Shown here: positions 18,792 through 53,711 of the stretch, piece after piece
How positions within the stretch are numbered: the stretch's first letter is position 1
Layout: the number at the start of each line of letters is the position of its first letter
Assembly (NCBI GenBank): GCA_965204745.1
Contig: OZ242010.1
Coordinates: forward strand, 960,001-1,024,000
Length of the DNA stretch: 64,000 nt
From: Candidatus Latescibacterota bacterium
GTDB taxonomy: Bacteria > Latescibacterota > UBA2968
Direction of reading: 5' to 3'
Position numbers and translations under genes: made by a program
Notes under the pieces: generated by a model
Told to the model about the DNA's origin: nothing
Seen by the model: the letters and a program-made list of their open reading frames with translations, nothing else
Databases searched by the model: none

Positions 18792-19007
18792 TCTCACGTC
18801 TCACGTCTCACGTCTCACGTCTCACGTCTCACGTCTCACGTCTCACGTCTCACGTCTCACGTCTCACGTCTCACGTCTCACGTCTCACGTCTCACGTCTC
18901 ACGTCTCACGTCTCACGTCTCACGTCTCACGTCTCACGTCTCACGTCTCACGTCTCACGTCTCACGTCTCACGTCTCACGTCTCACGTCTCACGTCTCAC
19001 GTCTCAC
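18792..19007. repeat. Perfect heptamer tandem repeat (TCTCACG), about 31 copies
   Basis: Read directly from the sequence; lies between divergent genes. Confidence 0.98.
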
Positions 19008-20878: not shown

Positions 20879-22710
<1,832 letters not shown>

Positions 22711-22715
22711 TGTTT

Positions 22716-22883
22716 GGTAAGAGGTAAAAGGTAAGAGGTAAGAGGTAAGAGGTAAGAGGTAAGAGGTGAAAGGTAAGAGGTAAGAGGTAAGAGGTAAGAG
22801 GTAAGAGGTGAAAGGTAAGAGGTAAGAGGTAAGAGGTAAGAGGTAAGAGGTGAAAGGTAAGAGGTAAGAGGTAAGAGGTAAGA
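22716..22883. repeat. Heptamer tandem repeat (GGTAAGA), 24 units with a 42-bp higher-order period
   Basis: Variant units at 22723, 22765, 22807 and 22849; abuts the IS110 end. Confidence 0.97.
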
Positions 22884-22898
22884 TACTCTCTTAAAAGG

Positions 22899-23906
22899 TC
22901 AAGGGGTTTTCGGGGTGATTCGATAGAATTTTTCGCCCTCAAAATCTTGGTCATGGCGCAACATGCCCCAGATCGAATGGAGCAACTTTCGCATCACCGC
23001 AACGATAGCCTGCAAAGGTTTCTTGCCGCGGGCGATGAGTTGGTCATAGAAGGCTTTGACATGGCCTTCGTGTCTGATGGCCACCCAGGCAGGCATATAG
23101 AGGGCATGGCGGAGGTACTTATTCCCGGTTTTCGAGATGCGTCTTTGTGGATTGGCGGTTCCGGATTGTTTGGGTTTGGGATCCAGGCCTGCATGTGCGA
23201 CCCACTGGGGCGGTTGCATCTCCTCTGGCAAAAGGGTCAACTCGGCCAAGAGCCGCAAGGCACTCGTTTGCGCGATGCCAGGCGTCGAGCAGAGGCGTTG
23301 GTAGGCACGCTTGAGGGGCTCATCGTGCAAAACGAGATCGAGGGCTTGGCTTTCCAAGTATGCAATCCGGCGTTTGAAGTGTCGAATATTCACCTGAATA
23401 TCGCGTGCGATGAGACGTGTGCTGCGGATGTGGTAGCTCTGCGCGTGGTTGCGGCTCTGTTCGCGGATGATCTCCTGCTTGAGTTGGTCAATGCGTCTGG
23501 TGAGGGCTTGCAGTTGAAGCCGTTGCTCGCTCGGCGCTTGCCAAGGCACAAAAGGCATGCGCTCGGCATAGTCGAGGATCAACAACGCATCCTTCGCATC
23601 CGTCTTCGCCCGTTGCATGCAGGCTTGGGCGTACTTGCTCATCGCTTTGGGATTGACGACCATGACCTTTGTGTGGCGATGCCGATGCAAGGCCAAGGCC
23701 ACCCCCAAACTGTAAAGCCCGGTCGCTTCGAGGCACACAGAGACCATGTGCCCGCCCTTCGTGAGCCACTTCAGCAACCGCTTATGCGCTTGGGGATCAT
23801 TGGCAAAGGTCGCTTGCATGACAGCTTGTCCGGGTCTGGACAGGGCAACGGACAACGTGCGGGCACTGACATCAATGCCGGCAAAAGCGGGGTGAGATTT
23901 CGACAT
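22899..23906 (-). CDS. IS110 DEDD recombinase/transposase
   Basis: AGIDVS, CLEATG, RAKTDAKDA (DEDD RuvC domain); QSG catalytic Ser; ISKTGNKYLRHALY; GGAGG RBS. Confidence 0.96.
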   Translation of the reverse strand: MSKSHPAFAGIDVSARTLSVALSRPGQAVMQATFANDPQAHKRLLKWLTKGGHMVSVCLEATGLYSLGVALALHRHRHTKVMVVNPKAMSKYAQACMQRAKTDAKDALLILDYAERMPFVPWQAPSEQRLQLQALTRRIDQLKQEIIREQSRNHAQSYHIRSTRLIARDIQVNIRHFKRRIAYLESQALDLVLHDEPLKRAYQRLCSTPGIAQTSALRLLAELTLLPEEMQPPQWVAHAGLDPKPKQSGTANPQRRISKTGNKYLRHALYMPAWVAIRHEGHVKAFYDQLIARGKKPLQAIVAVMRKLLHSIWGMLRHDQDFEGEKFYRITPKTP

Positions 23907-23959
23907 GGGGGCCTCCTGTGATGAGGGGGTTGTAAGGGATCTGGTGCGCGCTCGGGGTC

Positions 23960-24160
23960 GCGTCCCGACCATTGACGCCAAGTCTACCGGTCTTGTATAT
24001 GCAGCCTCAAGGGGCTTAGATACTCTTCGGCATAGACCCGGCGGTCGGGGGGCCTATCTTACCTACAAGGTCATCGCCTTCAAGAGGGGCCGGCCTTCCC
24101 CGAGCCGGGCATCAAGATGGCTTATCTCGATACGAGGGCGCAACTCCTAATTAACCCTTA
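23960..24160 (-). ncRNA. Bridge RNA (approximate bounds)
   Basis: Two internal loops with guides LTG 24083-91, RTG 24058-64, LDG 24018-26 and RDG 23992-98, matching the target and donor junctions. Confidence 0.85.
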
Positions 24161-24351
24161 CTTCCAAGATACAAGAGGGGAAAGGGTTGGTTAGTCCCAG
24201 TTCATCCTCAAGTTGTCAGTTGTCAGGCCGCCCCCCATCACCCGTAGGGACAGGCCCCTGTGCCTGTCCTCAGTCCTCGGTTAGTCGCTTCGTCATTCCG
24301 ATGCACGCGCAAGCACAACGTCGGTAATTCAGTGACTTGTGTTTTTCGCCT

Positions 24352-24427
24352 TTCCCATCTCACGTCTCACGTCTTGCCTCTTGCCTCTTACGTCTCGCCT
24401 CTTACCTCTTGCGTCTCACGTCTTACC
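24352..24427. repeat. Degenerate heptamer array (TCTYRCS)
   Basis: TCTCACG/TCTTGCC/TCTTACG/TCTCGCC/TCTTACC units. Confidence 0.85.
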
Positions 24428-25396
24428 CGGTGCGCCGGAGGTGAATTTTGCGAGTTGCCGATGCAGATGGGTGCGGAGGTCGGGGTCGTCCGGTTGCAAG
24501 GCGATGGCTTGGCGGATGATGAGGATGGCGCGTTCTGTGTTGCCCAGTCTGTAATGCAATTCGGCGAGGGTGTCCAGGTACGAGGGCGCGTGGGGGCGCA
24601 GGCGCAGGGATCGCCGGGACAAGCGAATGCCCTCGCGCAGGTGAATCCCCTGAATCGCGTAGAGCCACGCGAGGTTGTTCAGGCTACTGTCGTCGAGGGG
24701 ATTGAGTTCGAGGGCTTTTTTGAAGTATTCCTCTGCGCGTTCATAGTCCTCATGCTCGTAGTACACATTGCCCAATTCGCCGTGGGCGCGGGCGTGGAGT
24801 TCGGATTCGCGGTCGGTTTGCGGTTCAATCGCCAACACTTGTCGGTATGATTCTTCGGCGCGCTCGGGCCATTTCAGGATGAGATAGAGCCTGCCGAGTT
24901 GGAAATGTGCCCACAGTGCCTGCGGCCAGCGTTCCACAACGGTTTCCAAGAGCGATTGGGCTTCGGGCAATTGTTCGTGCGCGAGATAGAGAACGATGAG
25001 GTCGCGGTGCGAGTCCTCGTGCGCGGGCACTTGGGCGATTGCTTTTTCCAACCAGCCGATAGCGGCTTCAGGCATGTCCATGGCTTCGCTGACCAGTGCC
25101 AAGTCTCGGTAGATGACGAGGTACTGCGGAGCCAATGCCTGTGCGGTTTCAAACTCGGCTTGGGCCGCGGCGTATTGCCGGCTCCGCAAATATGCCCTGC
25201 CCAACCACCGGCGCAAGACCGCGTCTTTGGGGCAGATTTCCACGGCGGCTTGAAATATCGCCAGCGCGGTTTCGCTGTTGCCATTGGCCTCGTGCGCGAT
25301 GGCGCGGTCCAAATGGCGATACGCCCGATACTCGGCACAACCGGCCAAGAGCAACGCAGACGCGAACAAAAACAGAAGGGGATAGTTGGCGTTCAT
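24416..25396 (-). CDS. TPR-repeat lipoprotein
   Basis: Lipobox LLLAGC; TPR motifs such as AHGELGNVYYEHEDYERAEEYFKKALELNP. Confidence 0.88.
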   Translation of the reverse strand: MNANYPLLFLFASALLLAGCAEYRAYRHLDRAIAHEANGNSETALAIFQAAVEICPKDAVLRRWLGRAYLRSRQYAAAQAEFETAQALAPQYLVIYRDLALVSEAMDMPEAAIGWLEKAIAQVPAHEDSHRDLIVLYLAHEQLPEAQSLLETVVERWPQALWAHFQLGRLYLILKWPERAEESYRQVLAIEPQTDRESELHARAHGELGNVYYEHEDYERAEEYFKKALELNPLDDSSLNNLAWLYAIQGIHLREGIRLSRRSLRLRPHAPSYLDTLAELHYRLGNTERAILIIRQAIALQPDDPDLRTHLHRQLAKFTSGAPGKT

Positions 25397-26657: not shown

Positions 26658-26816
26658 GAGGGGAGACGGGAGAGGGCTACCGCACTATTCCGCTCAAGGG
26701 GTCAGTAGTCAGCCCACCCTGCCCAACCCCCTTTGGTAAGACGTGAGACGTGAGAGGGCTACCGCACTATCCCGCTCAAGAGGTCAGTTGTCAGTAGTCA
26801 GTAGTCAGTAGTCAGT

Positions 26817-30798: not shown

Positions 30799-31314
30799 TG
30801 CGGGTAGTTGTTTCTCAAGTGAAATTCTCGAATCCCTCCCGTGTTTAATCTCGCAAATTTGAGCGCAAGGTCAACCAATATCTCATCCTGACCCGCGTCT
30901 TTCATCCGCGTTCATCGGTAACTCCCCTGCCTTTCGCTACTGAATAACCGCTTCAGCACATGCTTTGCCCGTTACCTTTCTGCGCCCTTCGCCCCACCTG
31001 CGTCGCCCAATCCGCGCAATCCGCGCAATCCGTTTAATCCGCGATTCAGACTTGTTTGAGGTTGTGAAATGGGGAAAAGTGGCTATATTTGTCGCAAGGC
31101 CAACCACTGACCGCTTGAGGGTTCGGGGCGGGGCGGACTGACCACTGACCACTGCTTCGGGCGAGCACGGGGGCACCGCCCAAAAAGGTGAGAGGTGAGA
31201 GGCAAGACGGGAGAATACTTACACTCACTGCTCGCCTTTGAACGGCCTATCGCCATGTACCCCTTTTGTGTCTTTGAACTGGCTATCGCCAGTTGTACCC
31301 CGCTCGTGGCTATC

Positions 31315-31386
31315 CTCGCCTCTCGCCTCTTGCCTCTCGCCTCTCGCCTCTTGCCTCTCCCCTCTTACGTCTCACCTTTTACCCCT
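31315..31386. repeat. Degenerate heptamer array
   Basis: TCTCGCC/TCTTGCC/TCTCCCC/TCTTACG/TCTCACC units. Confidence 0.85.
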
Positions 31387-52282: not shown

Positions 52283-52687
52283 TCACGCGGTAGGGCTTAC
52301 TTCCGGGCTGTTCGCGGTTGCTTCCATTGCCACAGTTTTATCTTTCTTGGGCGTTCTCCAAAGCCCTAACGCATACGTTACAAAAGCCACGACACAGGCC
52401 ACCATAGCACCGAATAAAGCGATGAGCCAGTTGTTCAATGTATCGATTCGATTATTCGTAACTTCGATCAACTTAAGCGTGGCCTGGTGATTCGCCTCCA
52501 TCTGCTTGAGTGTGGCCTGGTGATTCGCCTCAATCTGTTTGCTCAAGGCTTCATATTGAAGTTTCATGGTCGTTTCAAGTATCGCCAATCTTTCTTCAAC
52601 ACTTGGATTGGTTGAAGCAGGAGAGGGATCCCCAAAAGCAACGCCTGAAAACGACATCACAAATACGACCAAAAGTCTCGCTGACAT
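52283..52687 (-). CDS. Tandem paralog 3 (two 11-aa repeats), signal peptide plus coiled coil plus TM
   Basis: Near-identical to 52729-53166 and 53208-53711. Confidence 0.85.
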   Translation of the reverse strand: MSARLLVVFVMSFSGVAFGDPSPASTNPSVEERLAILETTMKLQYEALSKQIEANHQATLKQMEANHQATLKLIEVTNNRIDTLNNWLIALFGAMVACVVAFVTYALGLWRTPKKDKTVAMEATANSPEVSPTA

Positions 52688-52728
52688 GACATACTCCTTT
52701 CTCCACAGATAAATGCCAATTCAACAAA

Positions 52729-53166
52729 TCACGCGGTAGGGCTTACTTCTGGGCTGTTCGCGGTTGCTTTCATTGCCACAGTTTTATCTCTCTTGGGCGT
52801 TCTCCAAAGCCCTAACGCATACGTTACAAAAGCCACGACATAGGCCACCATAGCGCCGAATAAAGCGATGAGCCAGTTGTTCAATGTATCGATTCGATTA
52901 TTCGTAACTTCGATCAACTTAAGCGTGGACTGGTGATTCGCCTCAATCTGTTTGAGTGTAGATTGCTGGACCGTCTCAATCTGTTTGAGTGTGGCCTGGT
53001 GATTCGCCTCAATCTGTTTGCTCAAGGCTTCATATTGAAGTTTCATGGTCGTTTCAAGTATCGCCAATCTTTCTTCAACACTTGGATTGGTTGAAGCAGG
53101 AGATGGATCCCCAAAAGCAACGCCTGAAAACGACATCACAAATACGACCAAAAGTCTCGCTGACAT
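52729..53166 (-). CDS. Tandem paralog 2 (three 11-aa repeats)
   Basis: Near-identical to the flanking paralogs. Confidence 0.85.
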   Translation of the reverse strand: MSARLLVVFVMSFSGVAFGDPSPASTNPSVEERLAILETTMKLQYEALSKQIEANHQATLKQIETVQQSTLKQIEANHQSTLKLIEVTNNRIDTLNNWLIALFGAMVAYVVAFVTYALGLWRTPKRDKTVAMKATANSPEVSPTA

Positions 53167-53207
53167 GACATACTCCTTTCTCCACAGATAAATGCCAATT
53201 CAACAAA

Positions 53208-53711
53208 TCACGCGATAGGGCTTACTTCTGGGCTGTTCGCGGTTGCTTCCATTGCCACAGTTTTATCTCTCTTGGGCGTTCTCCAAAGCCCTAACACATA
53301 CGTTACAAAAGCCACGACATAGGCCACCATAGCGCCGAATAAAGCGATGAGCCAGTTGTTCAATGTATCGATTCGATTATTCGTAACTTCGATCAACTTA
53401 AGCGTGGACTGGTGATTCGCTTCAATCTGATTGAGTGTAGATTGCTGGACCGTCTCAATCTGCTTGAATGTAGACTGCTGGACCGTCTCAATCTGCTTGA
53501 GTGTGGACTGCTGAACCGTCTCAATCTGTTTGAGTGTGGCCTGGTGATTCGCCTCCATCTGTTTGCTCAAGGCTTCATATTGAAGTTTCATGGTCGTTTC
53601 AAGTGTCGCCAATCTTTCTTCAACACTTGGATTGGTTGAAGCAGGAGATGGATCCCCAAAAGCAACGCCTGAAAACGACATCACAAATACGACCAAAAGT
53701 CTCGCTGACAT
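53208..53711 (-). CDS. Tandem paralog 1 (five 11-aa repeats)
   Basis: Near-identical to the two downstream paralogs. Confidence 0.85.
   Translation of the reverse strand: MSARLLVVFVMSFSGVAFGDPSPASTNPSVEERLATLETTMKLQYEALSKQMEANHQATLKQIETVQQSTLKQIETVQQSTFKQIETVQQSTLNQIEANHQSTLKLIEVTNNRIDTLNNWLIALFGAMVAYVVAFVTYVLGLWRTPKRDKTVAMEATANSPEVSPIA

Follow-up and report, generated by a model that had tools for sequence, protein, structure and literature searches.

The 64,000-nt stretch of DNA analysed here (the window, to whose coordinates all positions refer unless stated) belongs to a Latescibacterota genome assembled as one contig of 5.48 Mb (G000). It carries on its minus strand an insertion sequence with a recombinase gene, a predicted bridge RNA in its left end and a tandem array of host heptamers beside its right end (Table 1). 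We consider it very probable that positions 22881-24175 (minus strand) represent an IS110-family insertion sequence of the IS621-like bridge-RNA type, 1.29 kb in length and apparently active, the guides of which are matched to the neighbouring heptamer units. The system of reference is IS621 of Escherichia coli, an IS110-family element with a bridge RNA (Durrant et al. 2024, PMC11208160), for which structures 8WT6-8WT9 are available (PMC11208158).

Table 1. Position and make-up of the element and of the heptamer arrays beside it.
Feature	Position	Strand	Details
Insertion sequence body	22883..24173	-	1291 bp; right donor TGTAT (24173-24169) to left donor AGAGTAT (22889-22883); one CT core each side
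Left junction, host side	24174..24182	-	left target TTCCCCT (24182-24176) and core CT (24175-24174), then TGTAT
Right junction, host side	22876..22882	-	core CT (22882-22881) and right target TACCT (22880-22876), the first array unit
Recombinase gene	22899..23906	-	335 aa; ATG at 23906; AGGAGG 5 nt upstream of ATG (7-12 nt upstream)
Predicted bridge RNA	23962..24160	-	about 200 nt, both ends inferred; 5' stem-loops, target-binding loop, donor-binding loop; from fold and covariation
Left target guide, 5' strand of target-binding loop	24083..24091	-	GGCCCCTCT; matching part CCCCT-CT (24089-24083)
Right target guide, 3' strand of target-binding loop	24056..24064	-	AGGTA+AG (24064-24058), then AT (24057-24056)
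Left donor guide, in donor-binding loop	24018..24026	-	AGAGTATCT, i.e. AGAGTAT+CT; identical to element right end plus core
Right donor guide	23992..23998	-	ATACA+AG, reverse complement of CT+TGTAT
Small hairpins, one inside each guide pair	24080-24067; 24016-24003	-	AAGG..CCTT; AGCC..GGCT
TTGACC at right end	22897..22902	-	candidate -35 box, in circular form only; 13 nt from right end
TATCTT	24171-24166	-	candidate -10 partner; starts at the element's third base
Host heptamer array beside element	22716-22883	-	TRF period 7, about 24 units; mostly CTTACCT with TTTCACC variants
Degenerate array, same unit family, opposite orientation	24358..24427	+	overlaps 3' end of open reading frame 24416-25396(-)

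The junctions, four guide segments and two small hairpins proposed in the first-pass annotation of this locus were checked base by base on the minus strand, and all were recovered in place. The right-junction CT-TACCT is the reverse complement of AGGTAAG in the target-binding loop; a TG (24082-24081) that follows the left target guide is identical to the first two bases of the element. The AT that follows the core-pairing AG of the right target guide (AU in the RNA) is the complement of left-donor positions 6-7 (AT) and occupies the position of the handshake guide in IS621, as given in PMC11208158. The right donor guide reads ATAGACAAG in relatives, which fits the discontiguous 9-on-7 pairing described for IS621 (PMC11208160). 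The element ends, TGTAT.. and ..AGAGTAT, are not inverted repeats and there is no target duplication, as is characteristic of the IS110 family. This anatomy is near invariant among the 52 full-length copies of the element in the genome: all 52 have the CT core at both junctions and the left donor AGAGTAT, and 51 have the right donor TGTAT, to be compared with CTTGTAT, the reverse complement of the right donor guide. The left donor guide reads AGAGTAT in 51 copies, the exception being AGCGTAT in copy c1297035.

The recombinase has both domains of the family, PF01548 (1.2e-24; 87.3 bits with a cut-off of 29; residues 9-154) and PF02371 (4.8e-20). Its best match among solved structures is ISCro4 (PDB 9T56; 7.6e-40; residues 7-326 of 335), compared by protein sequence only, followed by IS621 (5.8e-36 by phmmer), both alignments being nearly full length. 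Residues D12, E60, D103, D106 and S248 align with D11, E60, D102, D105 and S241 of IS621, which were named as catalytic by Hiraizumi et al. (PMC11208158); the numbering of the IS621 PDB chain is offset by 2 from that in the paper. In terms of motifs, the counterparts in the IS621 chain are GIDtA, cIEATG and KTDtvDA for D12, E60, D103 and D106, and the serine of ..ESGS.. for S248. The catalytic D, E, D and D are invariant among the four orthologues.

The predicted RNA was studied by alignment of 24 left ends, drawn from this genome (four variants), its three sister genomes and 13 relatives at a greater distance, from the Latescibacterota, Gammaproteobacteria (including Methylococcales), Gemmatimonadota, Thermoanaerobaculia, Terriglobia and unclassified bacteria. 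The RNAalifold consensus has two stem-loops, each opening into a large internal loop with a small hairpin further in; 17 of its 31 pairs show compensatory change. Of the cells, 96.5% are paired in the consensus structure versus 20.6-49.1% when partners are slid by 1-3 columns, and the observed covariation score was reached by none of 500 column shuffles. The shuffles ignore the relatedness of the sequences; the slid controls are free of this weakness, but the structure was derived from those same 24 sequences. The four guide strings sit in the internal loops, save for a two-pair GU/AC contact between the donor guides that arises because GTAT occurs in both element ends. The first-pass annotation had named paired guides, rather than guides in loops, as an outcome that would speak against it, and the consensus places them in loops; its view of the region as an IS621-type bridge-RNA layout with a CT core is likewise borne out by the conserved left-end RNA with two internal loops and by the IS110 domains.

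A blastn search of the genome with the element recovered 75 pieces, 52 of them full length. Copies that are not identical to the window copy fall into groups at about 99, 96, 95 and 89% identity, and all 57 matches to PF01548 belong to this one lineage. The 35-nt flanks are distinct in 52/52 copies on the left and in 51/52 on the right; the copies are therefore separate insertions rather than segmental duplications. When units of the form CT[CT]N[CT][CGT]T were counted strictly in phase outward from the core, at least two were found across the insertion point in 50/52 copies and at least three in 47/52. Insertions in unrelated sequence, which the first-pass annotation had put forward as a way in which its reading might fail, are thus not what was found. 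The median number of units beside the insertion point is one on the left and three on the right, and so the usual position of the element is an array's 5' edge. What is targeted is not the repeat in general but the point at which a ..CCCCT unit meets a CT-T(A/G)CCT unit that follows it.

The guides follow this target closely. The two strands of the target-binding loop are GCCCCUCUU and GUAGGUAAGAUA in 45 of the 52 copies, the matching parts being CCCCUCU and AGGUAAG. On the left side (the last five bases of the left flank plus CT) the match to the guide is 7/7 in 45 copies, 6 in three and 5 in four; on the right side (CT plus five bases of the right flank) it is 7/7 in 29 copies, 6 in 19, 5 in two and 4 in two. 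The right-side matches of 6/7 mostly involve an A/G difference, which we infer to be an rU:dG wobble because it lies opposite a guide U. The commonest flank pairs, with 15 copies each, are CTCCCCT-CT..CT-TACCT and CTCCCCT-CT..CT-TGCCT. Four copies of the 89% group have guides CGCCUCU/AAGUAAG and flanks CTCGCCT- or CTCACCT-CT..CT-TACTT or -TACCT, and one of the 96% copies, c1297035, has guides UCCCUCU/AGGUGAG and flanks CTTCCCT-CT..CT-CACCT, a perfect match. These two left-guide variants, CGCCT and TCCCT (five copies), change in step with their flanks. The third, TGCCT (two copies), does not: c216678, with guides UGCCUCU/AAGUAAG and flanks CTTACCT..TACTT, matches at 4/7 and 5/5.

The occupancy of sites is graded in the same sense. 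The perfect 12-mer CCCCTCTTACCT is occupied in 20 cases and free in five (20/25), whereas the wobble 12-mer CCCCTCTTGCCT is occupied in 17 and free in 65 (17/82), an odds ratio of 15 (Fisher p = 1.2e-7); about 1.7 such 12-mers are expected from base composition. These figures indicate that perfect sites are near exhaustion and that wobble sites are filling.

The recombinase was also sought in 40 relatives; close orthologues (at least 54% identity) occur in only three, G018, G016 and G036, from which all full copies were taken. RNA scaffold and donor ends are common to all, with the target guides being different. In G018, 18 copies (76-78% protein identity) have guides CTCGCCUCU/GGGAG and targets ..C(G/A)CCT-CT..CT-CCCGT, a different heptamer unit pair from that targeted by the window element, and by our own reading 17 of the 18 are inside heptamer arrays. 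The six copies of G016 (80-84%) have guides AUCC(U/C)CCU/AGAAAAG in most cases (AGGAAAG in 1/6) and targets ..TCCCC-CT..CT-TTTCT, which are not tandem arrays but adjoin a palindromic repeat. The three copies of G036 (54%) have guides UUGCGCAU/ACGUUAG and targets ..TTGCGC-(A/C)T..CT-AACGT, with no tandem heptamer. When the guides of four genomes were each scored on the flanks of all four, every set of guides scored highest on its own flanks, left and right alike; the guides of this genome score 6.7/6.4 there versus at most 5.7/5.0 on others, and those of G036 5.3/7.0 versus at most 3.3/4.8. In the distant relatives L098, L105, L107 and L109 the right guide, by our own reading, is the reverse complement of the right flank at equal loop positions. 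The same junctions in 52/52 copies, together with guides that fit their flanks far better than non-cognate guides do, constitute a pattern beyond chance, and natural covariation within and between genomes supports the dependence of insertion on the guides. The proposal of the first-pass annotation that the element is programmed against a heptamer repeat family accordingly has the support of the copies, of the guide positions and of this covariation.

With respect to activity, 30 further places in the genome are identical to the window copy over all 1291 bp (31 copies in all), a sign of recent activity, and the reading frame is intact in 52/52 full-length copies. The stretch or part of it is present in 20 public runs from eight studies (at least half of the sampled words in 13), several of which are labelled as sponge metagenome; high word depth over the element in the four runs compared in detail, all of contigs, does not equate to copy number. 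A contig from the unrelated run X2 (3366 nt; depth 2.4; 12-13 differences per flank piece), from a strain that is about 97-98% identical, joins 22763 to 24183 without the element and 18 array units, which shows an insertion polymorphism between close strains. That the copies are relics of a past burst, of an element no longer mobile, is unlikely; in its favor are the absence of the circle junction from the assembly and the near exhaustion of perfect sites, but the 31 identical copies, the intact frame of all 52 full-length copies and the strain contig that lacks the insertion argue against it.

The arrays themselves are numerous. TRF lists 1195 period-7 rows in the genome, and arrays of at least three units number 648, covering 25.9 kb or 0.47% of the genome; 502 of these 648 lie outside open reading frame calls versus about 100 expected at random, figures that are rough, given a crude open reading frame map that over-calls genes. 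The array beside the element stops 5 nt short of the next open reading frame, whose ATG is at 22710. A five-unit pattern for the family (TCTYNCN), sought in 41 genomes, matches 1265 times in this genome, 1049 times in G018 and 49 times in G001; none of the other 38 relatives has more than 12 matches (one in G016, 0 in G036). Heptamer-unit guides are thus carried by the elements of just the two array-rich genomes, a coincidence with n = 2 in relatives that are not independent. A second heptamer family, CTGACNA, has 897 matches in this genome, the only one of the 41 that is rich in it (0 in G018), and no second IS110 lineage is aimed at its arrays, all PF01548 matches of the genome being in the lineage of the window element. 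The expansion of the untargeted CTGACNA family, together with the occurrence of arrays without the element in G001, speaks for arrays that belong to the host and are exploited by the element. Each unit begins with CT and new combinations of units arise continually by slippage, so that the arrays provide a large and mostly intergenic supply of sites. A cyanobacterial host with heptamers of the STRR type was considered and rejected, no phycobilisome domain being present in the genome.

It has to be considered whether the heptamer units are instead carried or made by the element, such that the recombinase spreads or seeds units and the arrays follow it. Three G018 copies (loci L060, L062 and L063 at G018:C1:1447585, 3426643 and 3558818) have unrelated left flanks but an identical right-flank array of 7-8 units; the shared 49-nt array string occurs at three places, each directly after one of these copies, with a fourth place differing by 2 letters, which suggests that in G018 an array segment moved along with the element. 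The unit length (7) is the sum of the core and the right target (2+5), genomes rich in arrays are also those with heptamer-guided elements in 2/2 cases, and repeat accumulation beside IS110 elements has been described, with units of at least 50 bp (10.64898/2026.08.14.744561). Against such seeding, nearly all flanks in this genome are distinct, there are 648 arrays of at least three units versus 52 copies, G001 has arrays and no element, and the unrelated CTGACNA family is equally expanded with nothing targeting it. Moreover, the guides covary with the left flank too, which the element could not carry, and we regard seeding as very unlikely. A coupling in which the element and the host repeat landscape are tied both ways, with guides tracking single-base unit variants, the recombinase moving array segments and a possible interaction with 156 solitary left target-CT-TGTATCTT plus hairpin sites (described below), is unlikely. 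If true, it would imply that a bridge recombinase helps to seed and shuffle microsatellite arrays and small intergenic modules genome-wide, and does not merely use them as a harbour.

Site choice by the protein or by repeat DNA structure, with matches between RNA loop and flanks being coincidental or only regulatory, might draw on the shortness of the matching stretches (5+2 and 5+2 bases) and on the ease of chance matches between low-complexity arrays and pyrimidine-rich strings, but is highly improbable given that five of seven guide variants (four here and three in relatives, the exceptions being the UGCCU guide in two copies and the mixed G016 copies) change in step with flanks, that in distant relatives, whose targets are quite different, flanks are matched by the same positions of the loops, that perfect sites are filled far more often than one-mismatch sites, and that the homologous IS621 system is RNA-guided by experiment (PMC11208160).

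Several results weigh against the reading of the element as a guide-matched, active bridge-RNA system. The 9-nt left guide of the first-pass annotation, GGCCCCTCT, holds for its CCCCT+CT part only; its two leading Gs match the flank in 0/52 copies, and the left guide is therefore effectively shorter than that of IS621 (5+2 versus 7+2 bases). Copy c602781 (guides UGCCUCU/AAGUAAG; flanks CTTCCCT..CACCT) misfits its own flanks at 4/7 and 3/5 and may be a recombinant or an off-target event. The left target is CTTACCT in four copies (3/7 matches) and the right target CCCGT in two (2/5 matches); these are either off-target insertions or the result of later slippage. A single-sequence fold of the RNA is not distinguishable from shuffles (z = -1.21), so the case for the structure rests on covariation. 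The first-pass annotation had proposed alignment to bridge-RNA covariance models; an Rfam search over 22000-25000 at E values up to 10 gave chance-level matches only, with no relevant family, although Rfam 15 may hold no bridge-RNA model. The run X2 contig is not an exact empty site, since its junction reads CCAACCCT|CTTACCT, with one TTCCCCT unit also missing. Finally, the 14-mer of the circle junction has 0 occurrences in the assembly, as expected for the integrated state, and gives no support to a circular form.

To the observed anatomy, copy number, flank specificity and covariation, both of guides with flanks and within the RNA structure, a mechanism may be added by analogy with IS621, in which circle formation, promoter, RNA expression, base pairing and chemistry would be those of the homologous system. 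Upon excision the element would form a circle closed at the CT core, whose junction would place the candidate -35 box of the right end next to the candidate -10 box of the left end, driving expression of the approximately 200-nt bridge RNA. By our own reading of the sequence, TTGACC and TATCTT joined across one CT have an 18-nt spacer, and TTGAC-like hexamers are found about as far from the right end in 13/19 relatives (counted by eye); the pair would fit a promoter rebuilt at the circle junction, as described for IS621 by Durrant et al. (PMC11208160). Scanning the integrated locus for promoters and terminators gave nothing of relevance; the promoter expected here would exist only in the circle. 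The donor-binding loop would then pair with the joined ends AGAGTAT-CT-TGTAT, and the target-binding loop with CCCCT-CT and with CT-TACCT on opposite strands, a pairing that would span two consecutive units of the TCTYNCN family. Strand exchange at the CT core by the DEDD/Ser recombinase would give insertion without target duplication.

Work on the IS110 family has established that targets are chosen by an RNA guide, as well as how the loops are laid out, the CT core and the preference of such elements for repetitive intergenic DNA (REP elements and transposon ends) (PMC11208160). The window element shares with IS621 the domain pair, aligned catalytic residues, the CT core, the lack of target duplication and almost the same donor ends, as well as target and donor loops in a left-end RNA, a left guide in top-strand sense with a complementary right guide, and a handshake-like AU after the right target guide; its candidate -35 box at the right end would have a counterpart in IS621. 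The protein kinship is distant, however, and the host is a member of the Latescibacterota rather than E. coli. The targets also differ, being a two-unit junction in tandem heptamer arrays here and a REP palindrome for IS621, and the right guide match (5+2 bases) is longer than the four-base guide used in the analysis of IS621 (PMC11208160). ISPpu10 of Pseudomonas putida, a REP-targeting IS110 element, likewise has many copies in one conserved intergenic repeat family (10.64898/2026.03.19.712850). Targets of the ISPpu10 type are identical copies of a dispersed palindromic repeat (10.64898/2026.03.19.712850), whereas those of the window element lie in tandem arrays of varying units, and hence differ by single bases, with guides diversified alongside.

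Literature searches combining IS110 or bridge RNA with tandem, microsatellite or heptamer repeats returned no report of a heptamer-array target class, in agreement with the first-pass annotation, which had considered it undescribed; the supplements of papers were outside this coverage, and supplementary tables of natural IS110 targets could hold one. The words 'tandem' and 'microsatellite' have 0 occurrences in the main text of PMC11208160, and searches on Latescibacter* and sponge with transposase or repeat gave nothing relevant. The mechanism is thus already known; what appears new is the target class, i.e. unit junctions in tandem heptamer arrays, and the series of guide variants within one genome. 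Bridge-RNA recombinases, whose natural target range has comprised dispersed palindromic repeats and sites in transposons or integrons, would gain tandem, microsatellite-like arrays as a further kind of target. The case is clean and well supported, and is a good natural experiment rather than a new mechanism: with 52 independent insertions, four guide variants, graded occupancy (perfect > wobble > mismatch) and retargeted guides in sister genomes, guide evolution, mismatch and wobble tolerance, and target saturation can be measured directly. The 335-aa recombinase and its predicted RNA of about 200 nt provide a further compact orthologue for engineering, and the work points to a very rich landscape of heptamer arrays, hitherto undescribed, in certain genomes of the Latescibacterota.

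Some further observations concern the copies. At G000:C1:1121594-1124181 a 96% and a 100% identical copy follow each other head to tail with nothing but CTTACCT-CT between them; insertion of the younger took place one unit upstream of the left junction of the older. There is no sign of target immunity. Five 89% copies (C1:216678, 288681, 1307065, 2197888 and 3989015) have a similar right flank, TACTT-CTTGCCT-CTTACTT-GGGGATAGGGCTTGCGG, and a left flank of the GGTGGG type. There are 24 genomic occurrences of the motif GGGATAGGGCTTGCGG, and the 89% subfamily seems to use one particular short-array module.

The arrays are in part modular. The TCTYNCN and CTGACNA families are often joined in the order (CTGACNA)n, CTTGAGGAACAGCGCGGTGGCCTTC, (TCTYNCN)n, and another module consists of a hairpin, AAAAA, an inverted array, GGCCACC and a direct array. 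The 3' side of an array (TCT direction) lies within 30 nt of the end of a convergent open reading frame in 170/365 cases on the rough map, as exemplified by the array at 24358-24427; many arrays therefore directly follow stop codons in the purine-rich sense. Elsewhere in the window, period-7 arrays are present at 18792-19007, 24211-24226, 26739-26816 and 31137-31383.

The string CTTGTATCTT, made up of the core and the element's first 8 bases, was counted 212 times genome-wide (for example at C1:747869, C1:778369 and C1:1114755), 156 of these being outside any copy. Sixty-five such sites have a common hairpin of about 38 nt, (T/C)GGGCGAGCACGGGGGCATCGCCCCTACA, and a related hairpin is present in the window at about 24235-24265 (minus strand). 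Pyrimidine-rich, target-like sequence precedes the solitary sites, which resemble left junctions without an element. That these repeats are miniature derivatives with both ends is unsupported, the right-end motif AGAGTATCT showing no similar excess, with only 116 occurrences, about two per element. The cumulative GC skew of the genome has no clear two-arm pattern. At 52496-53565 the window also contains a tandem repeat unrelated to the element, with a period of 479, 2.1 copies, 96% matches and an inner 33-bp period.

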